From a phage: 64,000 bases of DNA. Below the pieces are notes generated by a model. It searched no databases, had not been told where the DNA came from, and worked only from the letters and a program-made list of their open reading frames with translations. The stretch lies in the sequence record PX880103.1. One strand, written 5' to 3'. Numbering within the stretch: the stretch's first letter is position 1; each line of letters starts with the position of its first letter. Positions 7,309 through 17,682 of the stretch are shown here, piece by piece. The translations under genes and the position numbers were made by a program.

Positions 7309-7866
7309 TTAAATGAAAAGATACCATCCATTGTAGTTGCTTTTTCTTACAACCTTACGAAGGTCTTCTCTGTCACCGATGAACTTCGGAGTGTACTGGA
7401 TGACACCTGGATGAATTTCTTTAGTGTTGAATATAATTATACAGTCAGCGACTTGATGATTTAGAATGGGCCCTAGATTTATTCCAGAACCGTATGGATA
7501 CTCTCCGCTGCATCCTGTTGTTACAGAAATCCAACGTGAGTCAGTTTGGTGTGTCTTAACTTCTACACGAAGCCCGCAGTATTTTGGATGTGCTAAAACA
7601 TCCCATGCATATGTGTACGGATCATCGACATCTTCTTGGCCTTTATTGACATACCCGCTTAGCCAATCTGCTACAAAAAATTCTGCGTACACAGCGATAC
7701 GGCATCTTTCGATAACTTCTGCCTTATCCTGATTTGGGTTTTGTTTTAAAGAGTATCTTGCAGTATCAGCAATTTTGGCCTTCATTTCACTAGTCAAGTC
7801 ACTGTTCGATAGGGTAAATGACGGAATCTGAAATAGTCTCTGCAAACCCGGATTCGTTTTCTGCAT
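7309..7866 (-). CDS. denB: Endonuclease IV DenB
   Basis: 185 aa as in T4 DenB, between ndd and rIIB; ATG confirmed. Confidence 0.8.
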   Translation of the reverse strand: MQKTNPGLQRLFQIPSFTLSNSDLTSEMKAKIADTARYSLKQNPNQDKAEVIERCRIAVYAEFFVADWLSGYVNKGQEDVDDPYTYAWDVLAHPKYCGLRVEVKTHQTDSRWISVTTGCSGEYPYGSGINLGPILNHQVADCIIIFNTKEIHPGVIQYTPKFIGDREDLRKVVRKSNYNGWYLFI

Positions 7867-11543: not shown

Positions 11544-11573
11544 ATTATACCACATCCTTGTGGTAAAGTAAAC
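11544..11573 (-). promoter_or_regulatory. Early promoter for rIIA.1/rIIA (GTTTAC-N18-TATAAT)
   Basis: Minus strand GTTTACtttaccacaaggatgtggTATAAT; -35 overlaps gene 39 stop. Confidence 0.65.
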
Positions 11574-13390
11574 TACTGGCTCATCCATTCTTTACGAAGG
11601 TCAGCATTATCTCCCATGAGCATTTCAAAAAGCTCTTTCCAGTTCTCAGGAAGTTTAACAACATCATATACTGGGTTTTGAATCATCTCACGATATTCAG
11701 ATTTTTCCAAAGAGCCAAGTCCTTTAATATAACGGATGCTATGTTTAGGTAGAGCATCTTTGGCACTCTCATATTCAGCGACTGTATAAAACCATTCTTG
11801 TTTTTTACCGACCTGAGCGATGATTACAGGAGTTTTGACAAAGCGAATTCTTCCTTGTTCAAACAGTTCTGGCCAATTACTAAAAAATCCGAGCAGAGAA
11901 GGATAAATGCTTCCTAGACCATCATGGTCAGCATCAGTCATAATAGCAATATTATGATAATTCAAGTTTTCAGCTTTTTCACCGAGAACTAATCCAGTGA
12001 TTGCGCAAATATCAAATAGTTCTTTGTTTTTAAGCATATCGGCATATGACATACCCCAGCTATTAAGAACTTTACCGCGTAATGGATAACCACCGTGAAG
12101 TTCTTTATCACGAACATCAATAAGATATCCGATAGCAGAATCACCCTCGGTTAAGAACAATGTAGTGTCAGCATCTTTACCGCAAAGATTCGCTTTAATA
12201 TGTTTATGAACCTTAGCTTTAGAAGCCTTTTTAGCTGCTTTAGTTTCTGCTGCTTTTTCTGCTGCCAATTTACGAGCTAATGCTGCTTCAATAATTGGCA
12301 TTAGAATTGCTTCATTATTTAGAATAGCGCGTGAAATCTTTTTAGCATCAAGTTGAATATGACTACGAATTTCACCAAATGGAGAAGTCAAACGCTCTTT
12401 AGTTTGAGAGTCAAATCGCATGTTTTTCATATCGCGAACAAACATAACGATAGTCAAACATTCTTTAACACGTGCTTTAGTCACATCAATTTTGAACTTA
12501 CGTTTGATTTGTGGAATAAGGTCTTCACAAATATCATCCATAACACAGTCAATGTGATGGCCACCATTCTTAGTATGAATGTTATTGACGTATGTTAATT
12601 GACGAAAACCATCCGGTGAACGACCAACCGCAATAGAACAATTTTCTTGTTCTTGAACGATAGCATGTTCATCATATTGGCGTGCGTATTTCTTAAAATT
12701 ACCCTGAACCTTTTTACCATTAAAGGTAAATTGAATATCAGGATAAACAACAGCAAGTGTTTGGAGACGATCTAGTGTAATGTCAAGATAAACTTGGGAC
12801 AGCTCATTAGTTTCAAATGACATAAAATCAGGAATGAAAGTAACACGGGTTCCTTTCCATTTTCCAGGAATATCTTCCCATGATTTATTTTCCATGCCGT
12901 TTGAACAACGAACTACAATATTATTTTGACCATCGCCAGTTTCACCAACAAACATCACAGAAAAAATGTTTGTCAAACTAGAACCAACACCATTCATACC
13001 GCCAGTGACGCGTTCTTTATCATCACCAAAGTTACCACCTGCTTTTGGAATAGTCCATGCAGCAACAGGACCAGGAATTTCTTCACCGGTAGGTGTTTTA
13101 ACCATTGCCTGCGGAATACCACGACCGTTATCTTCAACTGTTACTTGATTGTTTTTAATAGTAACATTAATTTTATTTGCGAATTTAAACTTAGTACGAA
13201 TACCTTCATCTACTGAGTTATCGATAATTTCATCAATAAGCTTAACAAGACCAGGTACATACTGAACACTTTCCCATTTACCAAACAGAAAGCGCTCATG
13301 CATTTCATTAGCAGAAGAGCCAATGTACATGCCGCTACGCTTTTTGATATGTTCAATATCGCTCAGAATTTTAATTTCATTCTTAATCAT
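11573..13390 (-). CDS. 39: DNA topoisomerase II large (ATPase) subunit, uninterrupted gene 39
   Basis: 605 aa from ATG at 13390 (track adds a GTG codon); N-terminus MIKNEIKILSDIEHIKKRSGMYIGS as in T4 gp39; continues through the region that is gene 60 in T4. Confidence 0.9.
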   Translation of the reverse strand: MIKNEIKILSDIEHIKKRSGMYIGSSANEMHERFLFGKWESVQYVPGLVKLIDEIIDNSVDEGIRTKFKFANKINVTIKNNQVTVEDNGRGIPQAMVKTPTGEEIPGPVAAWTIPKAGGNFGDDKERVTGGMNGVGSSLTNIFSVMFVGETGDGQNNIVVRCSNGMENKSWEDIPGKWKGTRVTFIPDFMSFETNELSQVYLDITLDRLQTLAVVYPDIQFTFNGKKVQGNFKKYARQYDEHAIVQEQENCSIAVGRSPDGFRQLTYVNNIHTKNGGHHIDCVMDDICEDLIPQIKRKFKIDVTKARVKECLTIVMFVRDMKNMRFDSQTKERLTSPFGEIRSHIQLDAKKISRAILNNEAILMPIIEAALARKLAAEKAAETKAAKKASKAKVHKHIKANLCGKDADTTLFLTEGDSAIGYLIDVRDKELHGGYPLRGKVLNSWGMSYADMLKNKELFDICAITGLVLGEKAENLNYHNIAIMTDADHDGLGSIYPSLLGFFSNWPELFEQGRIRFVKTPVIIAQVGKKQEWFYTVAEYESAKDALPKHSIRYIKGLGSLEKSEYREMIQNPVYDVVKLPENWKELFEMLMGDNADLRKEWMSQ

Positions 13391-13417
13391 CACTTATCCT
13401 CGTTTGGTTTCGGGAAT

Positions 13418-13725: not shown

Positions 13726-14097
13726 TCACTTAAATTTAATGGCTTGAAGAAGACTAATAACTCTCAAGCGGCTTCTTTCATCTTTAACTGTAAAGGAAAG
13801 AGGGTCACCAGATTTCATAGTGATAGTGCATCCAAAATCAAAATTTTCGGGAACTTCTTCGAAGAAGTCAAATTCTTCAGCATAAATTAGAACATTACTC
13901 TGCATACTGTGAAGAATTTTTCCATTATTTCCAGACGCTGTACTAATCATCGTAACATTATGACCTTTCATATCTTCAACGATAAATTCGCTTGTAGATA
14001 TTACAGCATTAATAGAACCATTCCTATAAATAGCAGACATTAGATATTTCTTTTCTTCGCCTTCGCGAATACGATATTTCTTACCGATTTTAAACAT
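13726..14097 (-). CDS. Hypothetical protein (123 aa, 39.2 position)
   Basis: ATG at 14097 (track start is GTG). Confidence 0.5.
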   Translation of the reverse strand: MFKIGKKYRIREGEEKKYLMSAIYRNGSINAVISTSEFIVEDMKGHNVTMISTASGNNGKILHSMQSNVLIYAEEFDFFEEVPENFDFGCTITMKSGDPLSFTVKDERSRLRVISLLQAIKFK

Positions 14098-14278: not shown

Positions 14279-14698
14279 TTATTCCTTAAAGTGAGCTTTC
14301 AACATCTGATACAAGGACCATGCTTGTTCATTATTTTCAATAGTAACTTTCATTACCGGGAATTCTGTGAAATCTTCTATTTGTTCTTGCTCTTCCTGCT
14401 CTTGTTCTTCAGCAGCCTGATATGGATTTTCAACTTCATCAAAGAACCCAGCTTCGTTAGTAGAGAGCCAGATAAAGTTTTCGTCAAGGATATCACCGCC
14501 GGCACAGCGTTTGAGTACACCTATGGATGTCATAATTTTAGTAGGACGCCCAAGATAATCAGCATCTAAAATTTTAAAAGGCTCCATACCTAAACGTCGT
14601 GCATAGATTCCGTTATCAGTATGGTCTTTAATAAAATTTTCTTGAGCTTGTTTATTTTTAAATTGATACCATTTATTAACTTCAAATTTAATAGCCAT
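14279..14698 (-). CDS. Hypothetical protein (139 aa; goF position)
   Basis: Size and position match T4 goF (about 141 aa) from memory only; acidic C-terminal tail. Confidence 0.5.
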
Positions 14699-14913
14699 TA
14701 ATAAATTTCCTTCCAGTAAGTTGTGCCGTCTTCAGTAATTTCACGAAATACACCGTAAATTGGCTGTTTATCACCGACTTTCTCATACACATAAACAGAA
14801 GTCAAGTGAGTAAACTTGCTAGTATGTTCCTTTTGAACTACTACCAAGTCTGGATCGAATAATACATCTTCAAATTCGTCATTAGTGCAGTTTTGAACAA
14901 TTTTACGTTTCAT
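14698..14913 (-). CDS. Hypothetical protein (71 aa; cef position)
   Basis: Size and position match T4 cef; GAGGAAA SD. Confidence 0.5.
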
Positions 14914-15012
14914 TACAATTTCCTCATTAATTGAACATTGGAGCGATGCGTTTCAGAAGAGTATCAACACCTTTAGCGAATTTTCCATTTTATTCTCCGA
15001 GTTGTTTTCTGT

Positions 15013-15055
15013 ATCAGTAGTTGATATTGATATAGTACCATAATCAACTACTGAT
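15013..15055 (-). promoter_or_regulatory. Atypical promoter inside a perfect 13-bp inverted repeat (atcagtagttgat / atcaactactgat)
   Basis: The loop carries TGGTACTAT (-10-like); followed by the conserved leader and GGAG; no canonical GTTTAC. Confidence 0.4.
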
Positions 15056-15085
15056 GTATATAGTTTTATGAAAAAATTTTAAACT

Positions 15086-15574
15086 TTATGCATAGAGAGC
15101 ATTGCTATAGTGTTTAATCCAACTTTCAGGAATGACTTTGTATGTTCCTAAAAATACCACGTTGTACAACTTAACGCCATCTTCTACCCATTGATCGGTA
15201 ATGTATCCACACATAGCGCGAGTATAAGCAGCCTTTCCATCATCTTTGATAAATTTAAATTCGCAAGGAGCAATGAACTTAATAGCTTGACCGAGTTTCC
15301 ACTTAAAGTCTACACCTACATGCGAAGTATCAATCGTTTCAATTCCTTTAGCGGGAACAGCTTTCAAAAACGCAGATTCAAGAAATTTCGCGCGAACATA
15401 ACCAAACTGGGGTTTAGACTTTCCATCTTTAGGAATGATACGAACTTTTACTTCAGAATCTTCATCTTTAACGCCATGCTTAAGCTGAATGCTTACAATT
15501 TCGACCAATTTTCCTGCTGCTTTAGAACGGGATTTATCAGATACACGAGCAATTTCACCAATATTAATAATCAT
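15086..15574 (-). CDS. motB: MotB-like DNA-binding protein (162 aa)
   Basis: Size and position (next after cef) match T4 motB; lysine-rich; ATG confirmed. Confidence 0.55.
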   Translation of the reverse strand: MIINIGEIARVSDKSRSKAAGKLVEIVSIQLKHGVKDEDSEVKVRIIPKDGKSKPQFGYVRAKFLESAFLKAVPAKGIETIDTSHVGVDFKWKLGQAIKFIAPCEFKFIKDDGKAAYTRAMCGYITDQWVEDGVKLYNVVFLGTYKVIPESWIKHYSNALYA

Positions 15575-15618
15575 AGTTATCTCTCACTTGTTAAAAAGAT
15601 TTTATACTCCACAGGACC

Positions 15619-15648
15619 ATTATACTCTGGTCCCAAGAGTTTGTAAAC
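15619..15648 (-). promoter_or_regulatory. Early promoter (GTTTAC-N18-TATAAT) for motB
   Basis: Minus-strand GTTTAC at 15643-15648 and TATAAT at 15619-15624; the -10 sits inside inverted repeat ggacca/tggtcc (15614-15633). Confidence 0.6.
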
Positions 15649-15650
15649 TA

Positions 15651-16190
15651 TTAATTCAAAATAGCTACCACTGCACTACGAGGTACTACGCTAAAATCAC
15701 CCGCATGAACAACGTTCAGAAGTTCAACACCATCTTCAATCCATTGGTCTGTTACCCAACCACAGACCGAAATAAATGGAGTCTTGATAGCTACCGCATG
15801 AGTTAGAAGGTCAGTAGGATCAACTTCTTTGAAGAGGATAAGCTCTGCTTCAAAGACTATAGTTTTAATTACTTCATCATTATCTAAGCGATGTACTCGA
15901 ATCACGTAAGCTTTATTCTTATCATGCCAGTTACTTTTTGAAAAACTTTTAACCACAAACTCGCCTTCACCAAAAGCATTAGTCAATGCTTTATAACCCA
16001 AATTTAGTTCAGTAGTTTTAATTTCAGTTTCAACCAGTTTGTAGGTTTTGCCGATTTCAATAGCGGTAGCCATAGTAGGTTCCTTAATTTCCAGTGGTTT
16101 AACAGGGCATACATAAGTGCTTACAACATCAAAATCAATCAGTTTAGCTACCGGATTTGGTATGTATTCAGGATTATAATTAAATTTCAT
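15651..16190 (-). CDS. Hypothetical protein (179 aa), MotB paralogue by C-terminal motif
   Basis: C-terminus CGWVTDQWIEDGVELLNVV parallels MCGYITDQWVEDGVKLYNVV in the 162-aa neighbour. Confidence 0.55.
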   Translation of the reverse strand: MKFNYNPEYIPNPVAKLIDFDVVSTYVCPVKPLEIKEPTMATAIEIGKTYKLVETEIKTTELNLGYKALTNAFGEGEFVVKSFSKSNWHDKNKAYVIRVHRLDNDEVIKTIVFEAELILFKEVDPTDLLTHAVAIKTPFISVCGWVTDQWIEDGVELLNVVHAGDFSVVPRSAVVAILN

Positions 16191-16192
16191 AA

Positions 16193-16693
16193 TTATCTCA
16201 TTTCAATAAAATCTACGAGTTCAGCATGCGATTTGCGGAACATTACTTGATGCCCACCAATGATAACTTCATCTTCAGGAACTTCGTATACAGCGAGATA
16301 AAATCCTTTAGAAGATAATTCTTCCCGCTCTTCTCGTGTGAACCATCTCATCATATCATATTCGCTAGCGAAAGCAAAATGATAAAGAGCTATAAACCAT
16401 CCTGGAATATGATATTCTACTCCAACATAATCTTTCTTGAACTTAGTATTAATTACTATATTAGCGTTTTTAACTAATAGTTTATCTTCGTGTGGTAAAG
16501 GAATTCTTTTATTATTATCGCTATGATGCATAAAATTAGGTCTGTCATAACCTACGTGTAATAGCCACTCTTCGCTCCATGAATCTATTATACTCCTGTA
16601 TGGCGTTATTTGAACACAAAGATTTCGACGTATTGTTATAGCATCTTCACAATTAAGAATACTAAACGATGATTCAACACGATAAATTTTCAT
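16193..16693 (-). CDS. Hypothetical protein (166 aa)
   Basis: ATG at 16693 with GAGGA SD, downstream of the 16721-16750 promoter (track start at 16732 is TTG inside the promoter). Confidence 0.55.
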   Translation of the reverse strand: MKIYRVESSFSILNCEDAITIRRNLCVQITPYRSIIDSWSEEWLLHVGYDRPNFMHHSDNNKRIPLPHEDKLLVKNANIVINTKFKKDYVGVEYHIPGWFIALYHFAFASEYDMMRWFTREEREELSSKGFYLAVYEVPEDEVIIGGHQVMFRKSHAELVDFIEMR

Positions 16694-16720
16694 TTTATTA
16701 TCCTCAGTAGCTATGGTGTT

Positions 16721-16750
16721 ATAATACCACAACTAACCGAGGAAGTAAAC
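16721..16750 (-). promoter_or_regulatory. Early promoter (GTTTAC-N18-TATTAT)
   Basis: Minus-strand GTTTACttcctcggttagttgtggTATTAT, just downstream of dexA. Confidence 0.6.
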
Positions 16751-16756
16751 AACTTT

Positions 16757-17440
16757 TTATCGTTTTGTTGGAAGAGATAGAGGATCGCATTCTTCCTCTG
16801 ATGGAGCATCTTCGAGACCCATAGCATATCGCAAAGCATACTTCATCATCAGAATATCTTTCGCACAGTCATGAATAGAATCATGCGCAACAAATCCATC
16901 TAAGGTTCCTTTTGGAAGAGGGCACGTGGTCATATCACGAACAAGCAGAAGTGCTTCAATTCTGGTACGAATATCACGCTGATTCCAGAATTTACATGGT
17001 TCTAACTTAAATGTGTCAAGCTCATTCTCAGAAACGCCGTTAAGACGTTGAATATCGCGAATGAGATCGACTAAAATTGGAAAATCAAACGACATTCCAC
17101 GGCACCAACCTTGAGATTTCCAAGGATCGATATTATGCGCATTGATGTAATCATTAAATTTTGCAATACCATCGATAGTACTTACATCTTCATCGGATGG
17201 TGCAATATTTTTTCGAGCTTCAGGAGATTGATTTTTCCACCATTCGATAGTGCTTTTAGTAAAAAGACGATGTCCTTTTTGGCTTTTTAAATCAAATTTG
17301 ATTTTAATGCCACGTGAAACTAATTCATCGAATGTTTCAACGACTTCTGGATTAGGGTCAAAAGCAATTACAGCCAAATCAATAACAGCTGCTTTTTCAC
17401 CACTTCCCATTGTTTCAAAATCTATAATAAAATCAAACAT
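16757..17440 (-). CDS. dexA: Exonuclease A (DnaQ-like 3'-5' exonuclease)
   Basis: 227 aa as in T4 DexA; N-terminal DxE motif (DFETMG); ATG confirmed. Confidence 0.85.
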   Translation of the reverse strand: MFDFIIDFETMGSGEKAAVIDLAVIAFDPNPEVVETFDELVSRGIKIKFDLKSQKGHRLFTKSTIEWWKNQSPEARKNIAPSDEDVSTIDGIAKFNDYINAHNIDPWKSQGWCRGMSFDFPILVDLIRDIQRLNGVSENELDTFKLEPCKFWNQRDIRTRIEALLLVRDMTTCPLPKGTLDGFVAHDSIHDCAKDILMMKYALRYAMGLEDAPSEEECDPLSLPTKR

Positions 17441-17682
17441 TAAACTTTCCTCGCTAAATCGCGAATTTGACCTACAGTATAGTCTTGAATATAAACTTTA
17501 TTAATAGGTTCATCAATAAATTTTGCCATAGATTCAATATCTTTTTGCATCTCTTCAAGACTGTATATTATCTTTAAAGCTTTTTCGCGAATAGTAATAT
17601 TTTCAGGACCAGAATTTTTCTCAATGACAGCTTTAACATTTGTCATAAGAGATTTAAACTGACACCAACTTAATTCAATCAT
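17440..17682 (-). CDS. Hypothetical small protein (about 80 aa), member of a tandem trio
   Basis: ATG at 17682 chosen (track start at 17715 overlaps upstream gene by 41 nt); C-terminus IQDYTVGQIRDLARKV resembles the neighbour. Confidence 0.45.
   Translation of the reverse strand: MIELSWCQFKSLMTNVKAVIEKNSGPENITIREKALKIIYSLEEMQKDIESMAKFIDEPINKVYIQDYTVGQIRDLARKV

Follow-up and report, generated by a model that had tools for sequence, protein, structure and literature searches.

MotB of a T4-like phage and the product of its neighbouring 179-codon gene share a C-terminal barrel behind unrelated N-terminal parts

Two adjacent early genes of a T4-like phage, motB and an open reading frame (ORF) of 179 codons next to it, encode proteins that end in the same domain and begin in different ones. 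We place the probability at roughly 0.8 that these are paralogous early genes with one and the same C-terminal barrel behind exchanged N-terminal modules. Judged by alignment, the 179-aa ORF is a true paralogue of MotB, with a common C-terminal domain and an unrelated N-terminal part. The DNA analysed, hereafter the window, is a stretch of 64,000 nt from phage record PX880103.1, given as one strand with positions counted from its first letter.

The window holds the early region of a T4-like phage (Tequatrovirus), and the genes discussed here all lie on the minus strand. Their order follows that of T4 and RB32, and runs from the fused 60+39 topoisomerase subunit through 39.1, a 123-aa ORF, 39.2, goF and cef to motB (15086-15574), the 179-aa ORF (15651-16190), motB.2 (16193-16693), dexA and dda. 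A 2.9-kb stretch around the motB pair is 96-97% identical to the Escherichia phages HMD-9, ECO4, RB33 and RB32, and finds matches in 632 phage records. The topoisomerase large subunit (11573-13393, minus strand) is a single fused 60+39 ORF of 606 aa, as in RB32; with the subunit fused, unlike the split one of T4, the gene 60 bypass element is absent from the window.

The initial annotation took the 162-aa ORF (162 codons plus stop) for motB, and this identification is well founded. Its product matches Pfam PF17613 (motB; gathering cut-off 25 bits) over its full length, residues 1-162 on profile positions 1-162 (E=2.8e-110, 365.8 bits), and is identical to T4 MotB, a protein of equal length, at 156 of 162 residues (96%). 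Just six substitutions separate the two, none of them within the core motif described below, and the gene sits in the same genomic slot as in T4 and RB32 (early, between cef and motB.1/motB.2/dexA). By sequence, then, it is motB, the orthologue of T4 MotB. That MotB is a DNA-binding protein affecting host nucleoid proteins, as stated in the initial annotation, has been published for T4 (Patterson-West et al. 2018 and 2021): the protein binds DNA tightly and non-specifically, is toxic, doubles the burst size and, in the presence of DNA, co-purifies with H-NS and StpA (PMC6070864), and it changes H-NS footprints and de-represses H-NS targets (PMC7827196). Given 96% identity, tight DNA binding, toxicity and H-NS/StpA co-purification would be expected to carry over to MotB of the window.

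In the AlphaFold2 (AF2) model, MotB is predicted to consist of two barrels. The N-terminal, lysine-rich KOW/SH3-like barrel (aa 1-68; 15371-15574, minus strand) has five strands within aa 8-67, and a KOW assignment for this domain has been published (PMC7827196). It is followed by an inter-domain linker (aa 69-87; 15314-15370), with pLDDT below 50 at aa 69-83, and by the C-terminal five-stranded barrel (aa 88-157; 15104-15313), with strands at aa 97-109, 115-131, 134-141, 144-149 and 153-156. For this second barrel pLDDT mostly exceeds 90, with block means of 91-95 for aa 91-160 and lower values before aa 91. Overall the protein has a net charge of +7, of which the N-terminal domain alone accounts for +5. 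Directly upstream of the gene lies an early-promoter-like site (15619-15647, minus strand), proposed from its match to the consensus (TTTACA, a 17-nt spacer and TATAAT; 11 of 12 consensus positions) and identical in sequence in T4 and RB32.

The two ORFs had been noted to end in related segments, and both peptides quoted at the time are indeed present. A single BLASTP comparison aligns MotB residues 120-151 (AMCGYITDQWVEDGVKLYNVVFLGTYKVIPES; 15122-15217, minus strand) without gaps to residues 141-172 of the 179-aa ORF (SVCGWVTDQWIEDGVELLNVVHAGDFSVVPRS; 15675-15770, minus strand), with 18 of 32 positions identical and 26 similar (E=1e-12). Against PF17613 the 179-aa ORF scores 34 bits, above the 25-bit cut-off, via its C-terminus alone (aa 141-174), while PHROG cross-matches stretch the similarity to MotB 79-152 and to residues 116-177 of the ORF. 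Comparison of family alignments by hhalign (A5, 47 sequences, for MotB; A2, 15 sequences, for the 179-aa ORF) then pairs MotB 88-157 with ORF residues 123-178 at 99.6% probability (E=1.9e-23, 56 columns), MotB carrying a 14-residue hairpin insertion relative to its paralogue within the shared domain. From this span it follows that the homologous unit is the whole C-terminal domain; the motif first reported is real, but its 32 residues are just a part of what is shared. Beyond the C-terminal domain, neither BLASTP nor hhalign aligned MotB with the 179-aa ORF. Furthermore, both C-terminal barrels are modelled with the same strand order and with a helix of three residues separating strands 4 and 5, and both proteins have an acidic shared core. 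The difference between a basic and an acidic N-terminal part, also pointed out in the initial annotation, holds as well: MotB has a pI of 9.3, and the 179-aa ORF a pI of 5.1 and a net charge of -7, its C-terminal domain contributing -5.

The 179-aa ORF (15651-16190, minus strand; 179 codons plus stop) adjoins motB upstream, in the motB.1 slot, and is classed here as a motB.1-class paralogue of the RB32ORF010c type (PHROG 2333). We found 197 homologues, most of them 176-183 aa long, and its N-terminal two-thirds occur once per record in about 387 phage records (386-387). GenBank names for the orthologues are inconsistent ('transcriptional regulator', 'adenylribosylating enzyme', 'motB-like protein', 'hypothetical protein'), and none of these is backed by experiment. 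An AF2 model built on a 26-sequence alignment divides the protein into three parts, the first of which is an N-terminal extension (aa 1-39; 16074-16190, minus strand), predicted to be disordered as part of a segment with pLDDT below 50 (aa 1-41). The middle domain (aa 40-123; 15822-16073) is read as a GoF/Frd.2-type LSm/SH3-like barrel with one helix; its residues 44-122, at pLDDT 75-85, are modelled as five strands, four of them long and one short, and a helix of 14 residues, the elements including strands at aa 49-52, 78-85, 94-101 and 107-113 and the helix at aa 60-73. AF2 confidence in this domain is moderate. The third part is the acidic C-terminal barrel (aa 124-179; 15654-15821), with five strands within aa 125-179 at pLDDT 81-93.

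The assignment of the middle domain takes a detour through the 123-aa ORF between 39.1 and 39.2 (13726-14097, minus strand), which is GoF/Frd.2-like and of the RB69ORF005c type. By hhalign, the middle domain (aa 44-123) matches the N-terminal domain of the 123-aa ORF family (E=1.9e-5, 77% probability), and the 123-aa ORF itself cross-matches phrog_2333 (E=1e-3). Both this ORF (E=2e-29) and GoF fall in phrog_622, which provides a connection between the middle domain and the GoF/MotB.1/Frd.2 "LSm-like" family. As such, the domain would belong with the GoF/Frd.2 LSm-like type at the 77% probability of that profile match, and only via the 123-aa ORF family. A direct link was sought by comparing the 179-aa family with GoF of the window, and was dropped at a probability of 0.2%, which is not significant. 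When more distant relatives of the 123-aa ORF were sought, nothing but orthologues with 84% identity or more came back, which makes its profile a shallow one. Kim et al. 2025 (PMC12152347) described an LSm-like N-terminal domain that T4 MotB.1 has in common with GoF and Frd.2. In the model, the 179-aa ORF has a small bent beta-sheet ahead of an unlike C-terminal domain, an arrangement that may correspond to the one in that family; unlike in those members, the domain is internal rather than N-terminal. Wild-type members of the family are without known RNA-related activity. The 123-aa ORF is absent from T4 and constitutes a further GoF/Frd.2-like paralogue with a weak Pfam FRD2 match; the GTG start listed for it is probably wrong, its homologues beginning MFKIGKKY.

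What, then, is the N-terminal extension of the 179-aa ORF? It is conserved in frame, with dN/dS values of 0.18-0.43 (9-32 changes per pair) that resemble those of the middle domain, and on these grounds is likely to be translated. Elsewhere in the family its conserved motif, LIDFDVVSTYVCPVKPLEIKE (aa 17-37; nt 16080-16142), forms the linker that leads straight into the C-terminal domain, for example as VVDTDVASMYLTPGLPLVIDPTDLL in a KOW-headed relative, and comparison with relatives identifies IETIDTSHVGV in the MotB linker as the counterpart of this D.D..SMY motif. Its pattern, hydrophobic-D-x-D-hydrophobic-x-S-M-Y ... K-P-L-E-I-K-E, is found in disordered segments of many family members; a regular expression for D.D..(M/T)Y, run over all six frames of the window, returned one copy only. 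Over its whole length, the extension can be aligned to the N-terminus and linker of P0122, a relative of 246 aa with an additional barrel, and for that reason appears to be a relic left by deletion of a first barrel. We also considered a discontinuous domain, in which aa 17-37 would pack on aa 125-179 with the LSm-like barrel inserted between them, as KOW-type relatives have the N-terminal motif immediately adjoining the C-terminal domain. This idea was set aside: AF2 predicts disorder for aa 1-41 and also for the corresponding linker segment of MotB, and an origin as relic or linker fits better.

The same relic could also lie outside the actual product, which would then be 140 aa long and start at Met40, the 39 codons upstream being an untranslated or unneeded in-frame remainder of a deleted N-terminal barrel. 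A possible internal start (16071-16085, minus strand) can be read from the sequence, with a strong AAGGA (16081-16085) and a 7-nt spacer before the ATG of Met40 (16071-16073), and initiation there may be supposed. Met40 is invariant in alignment A2, some records annotate a protein of 140 aa (P0108), and T4-type MotB.1, in the repaired form discussed below, is without a counterpart of the extension. The predicted disorder of the extension and its alignment with P0122 would suit the shorter product too. Against this, purifying selection acts on the extension much as it does on the middle domain, its motif is expressed as a linker elsewhere in the family, and the first ATG follows the motB.2 stop by 2 nt, which fits translational coupling. 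We thus find it unlikely, if by no means far-fetched, that the 140-aa form is the real product; isoforms of 179 and 140 aa could both be made.

The C-terminal domain of MotB has been published as an OB-fold of the cold-shock DNA-binding type, assigned with HHpred (PMC7827196). Our fold matches for the MotB and 179-aa models, which were obtained with whole multi-domain models and apply to each protein as a whole, comprise the PHF19 Tudor domain, Spt5/NusG KOW domains, eL27 and eS4, followed by chromo, PWWP and BAH domains, R67 DHFR and PsaE; EF-P, EfpL and IF5A were among the matches of the 179-aa model only. Matches in BFVD were family members, T4 MotB.1, KOW proteins and viral IF5A. The top lists of fold matches contained no OB proteins of the classical cold-shock or S1 kind, and the position of the helix in the C-terminal domain of the AF2 models appears SH3-like. 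Taken together, the matches favour SH3/Tudor/KOW-like barrels over an OB-fold, which renders the published assignment doubtful. Similarity to other tandem SH3-like small beta-barrels (53BP1 tandem Tudor, EF-P/EfpL/IF5A, Spt5/NusG KOW, HspQ/YccV) is one of fold only, at identities of 5-23%. Among solved PDB structures there was no sequence match to the MotB family; the 179-aa family had one weak match, 6lba (E=0.003), which is presumably spurious.

This bears on whether the paralogue might bind DNA like MotB, the C-terminal domain being a cold-shock-type OB-fold and the N-terminal domain merely modulating it. The HHpred-based assignment speaks for such a reading, as do the OB-containing EF-P, EfpL and IF5A among the fold matches. 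However, with its core acidic in both proteins, the C-terminal barrel may not be the main DNA-binding surface, and the acidity of the paralogue and of the shared core argues against a simple transfer of the non-specific DNA binding of MotB to its neighbour. DNA binding by the paralogue in this manner strikes us as rather improbable. Charge and fold data alike suggest asking which MotB domain binds DNA before paralogues are named "transcriptional regulators", as is done in many records.

The initial annotation suggested that a new N-terminal half could redirect the same C-terminal module, which as a proposal is reasonable. In the reading that we prefer, of one barrel behind exchanged modules, the C-terminal barrel might be a common docking or assembly module with the activity supplied by the N-terminal barrel, a division of labour that we put forward tentatively, on the basis of charge. 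The lysine-rich KOW barrel of MotB would then coat DNA non-specifically and so perturb H-NS/StpA, whereas the LSm-like barrel of the acidic paralogue would bind a protein or RNA partner, allowing the paralogue to act at the same target as MotB without coating DNA. A more specific version is decidedly speculative, and we rate it as doubtful: the C-terminal domain would be an acidic SH3/Tudor-like docking barrel that, together with the linker motif, targets KOW-, LSm- and double-LSm-headed tandem barrels to one host structure such as the H-NS/StpA nucleoprotein, with the 179-aa paralogue as a non-DNA-coating partner or antagonist of MotB. A corollary of the docking-barrel reading would be that the published work on T4 MotB.1 used a reference-derived 119-aa truncation without the barrel.

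That truncation emerges from the comparison with T4 motB, motB.1 and motB.2, which the initial annotation had proposed and which turned out as expected for motB, with a different outcome for the other two genes. MotB.2 is unrelated to MotB or to the 179-aa ORF (phrog_1106; Pfam Phage_T4_Y00F in relatives). The 179-aa ORF, for its part, is by sequence not a MotB.1 of the T4 type: in BLASTP against the repaired T4 protein just the last ~74 residues align (aa 111-179, 66% identity), the DNA encoding its N-terminal part is essentially unalignable to T4 motB.1, and T4 MotB.1 is without the 39-residue N-terminal extension. It does resemble the MotB.1 group of Patterson-West et al. 2021 (categories 2-4) in having a MotB-type C-terminal domain behind a non-KOW N-terminal part. 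N-terminal parts of at least two unrelated types occur in the motB.1 slot, and the 179-aa type is one that T4 does not represent.

In the T4 reference records (AF158101.6 and NC_000866.4), a single additional G lies within the conserved motif of motB.1 (GGATTGGAAGATGG in the T4 reference versus GGATTGAAGATGG in the others), at about position 7310 of NC_000866.4 (~3811 of our locus L003), the T4 counterpart of window positions 15740-15760. It ends the reference MotB.1 at 119 aa; with this base removed, T4 motB.1 encodes 143 aa, ending in ...EDGVELLNVVHAGEYSVVPRSAVVAILN. The extra G is missing from all 13 of the other T4-type records compared (11 of T4/T4T, RB55 and RB59), and T4T and MT984581 annotate motB.1 as 143 aa. 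The T4 reference motB.1 thus appears to be truncated by a single-base insertion. Programmed frameshifting at this site was considered and set aside, the base being missing from every other T4-type record. Neither PMC7827196 nor PMC12152347 mentions the extra G. The motB.1 constructs of Kim et al. 2025 were based on NC_000866.4, and the product seen was one of 13.8 kDa (PMC12152347), from which we infer that the MotB.1 assayed was probably without most of the shared barrel. In that study, knocking out motB.1 left the burst size and latent period of T4 at wild-type values, and an RNA reporter assay showed little effect of MotB.1 (PMC12152347); the construct in the latter was probably the truncated 119-aa form. 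Negative results with the 119-aa MotB.1 may need repeating with the 143-aa protein.

By tblastn, the C-terminal module occurs at 1443 places in 781 phage records, or about two per genome, and is conserved among them; the carriers are all phages of enterobacteria and relatives. A profile search over 1.8 billion representative proteins retrieved 18 clusters only (at 50% identity), and these searches show the MotB family to be a narrow mosaic restricted to Tevenvirinae. Its architectures comprise KOW-linker-CTD, LSm-linker-CTD, linker-LSm-CTD, LSm-linker-LSm-CTD and LSm-LSm-CTD, where CTD is the C-terminal domain, and a remnant exists in the form of a 43-aa motB.2/motB.1 fusion peptide (P0134). 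On a metagenomic contig (L006, 1501-3044) three PF17613 genes stand in tandem, of 180 aa (motB.1-type), 162 aa (motB) and 139 aa (KOW-type MotB-like), which indicates that copy number in the motB slot varies. By segment of the 179-aa gene, dS between the window and this contig is 0.65, 0.17 and 0.13, and between the window and a second genome (L008) 0.18, 0.86 and 0.46; such discordance points to recombination at domain boundaries, that is, to module shuffling. As far as these comparisons show, the motB pair arose by duplication, followed by exchange of the N-terminal modules.

The 179-aa ORF could in principle be a dispensable, decaying copy without a function of its own. The lack of a phenotype of T4 delta-motB.1 (PMC12152347) would agree with this, as would the frameshift in the T4 reference and the existence of remnants, namely the 43-aa fusion peptide and a 29-aa peptide in RB69 (the latter in PMC7827196). 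However, all three segments of the gene are under purifying selection (dN/dS 0.05-0.43, and 0.05-0.29 for the C-terminal domain), the N-terminal part is kept at full length in the roughly 387 phage records mentioned above, homologous proteins number 197, and the T4 frameshift is limited to the reference record. Decay is therefore very unlikely. A motif shared merely by chance or through composition, for which only the short length of the segment first quoted would speak, has next to no probability in view of the E-value of 1e-12, the Pfam match above threshold, the 99.6% profile match over 56 columns and the recurrence of the module in 781 records.

The relationship between MotB and MotB.1 is already known, and the genes in the window are ordinary orthologues of genes found in hundreds of T4-like phages. 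The GenBank record of RB32, annotated in 2006, bears the note "C-terminus similar to RB69ORF012c, motB". Patterson-West et al. 2021 (PMC7827196) described a common C-terminal domain and distinct N-terminal domains for MotB and MotB.1, proposed a duplication and defined categories with different N-terminal domains; their Table S4 includes YP_802952.1, which is RB32ORF010c, the orthologue of the 179-aa ORF. What we add is modest, and consists of the frameshift in the T4 reference, an interpretation of the C-terminal domain as SH3-like, the conserved linker motif and divergence data that indicate module shuffling. These are of practical value for work on the early "host-takeover" genes of T4.

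Two observations concern the flanks of the pair. On the upstream side, the program-made ORF list gives a 179-aa ORF with a TTG start (16193-16732, minus strand), which is motB.2; translation almost certainly begins at the ATG at 16693 and gives 166 aa (MKIYRVESS...), in line with T4 and RB32. On the other side, a scan of 14600-17600 found no canonical terminator, and a stable RNA hairpin lies between motB and cef (15013-15055, minus strand), some 30 nt past the motB stop. It combines an outer stem of 13 perfect base pairs with an inner 5-pair stem, at -20.2 kcal/mol (z=-4.6 versus shuffles); without a U-tract, this is not a canonical terminator, and the hairpin could act as a 3' stabiliser or a processing site.
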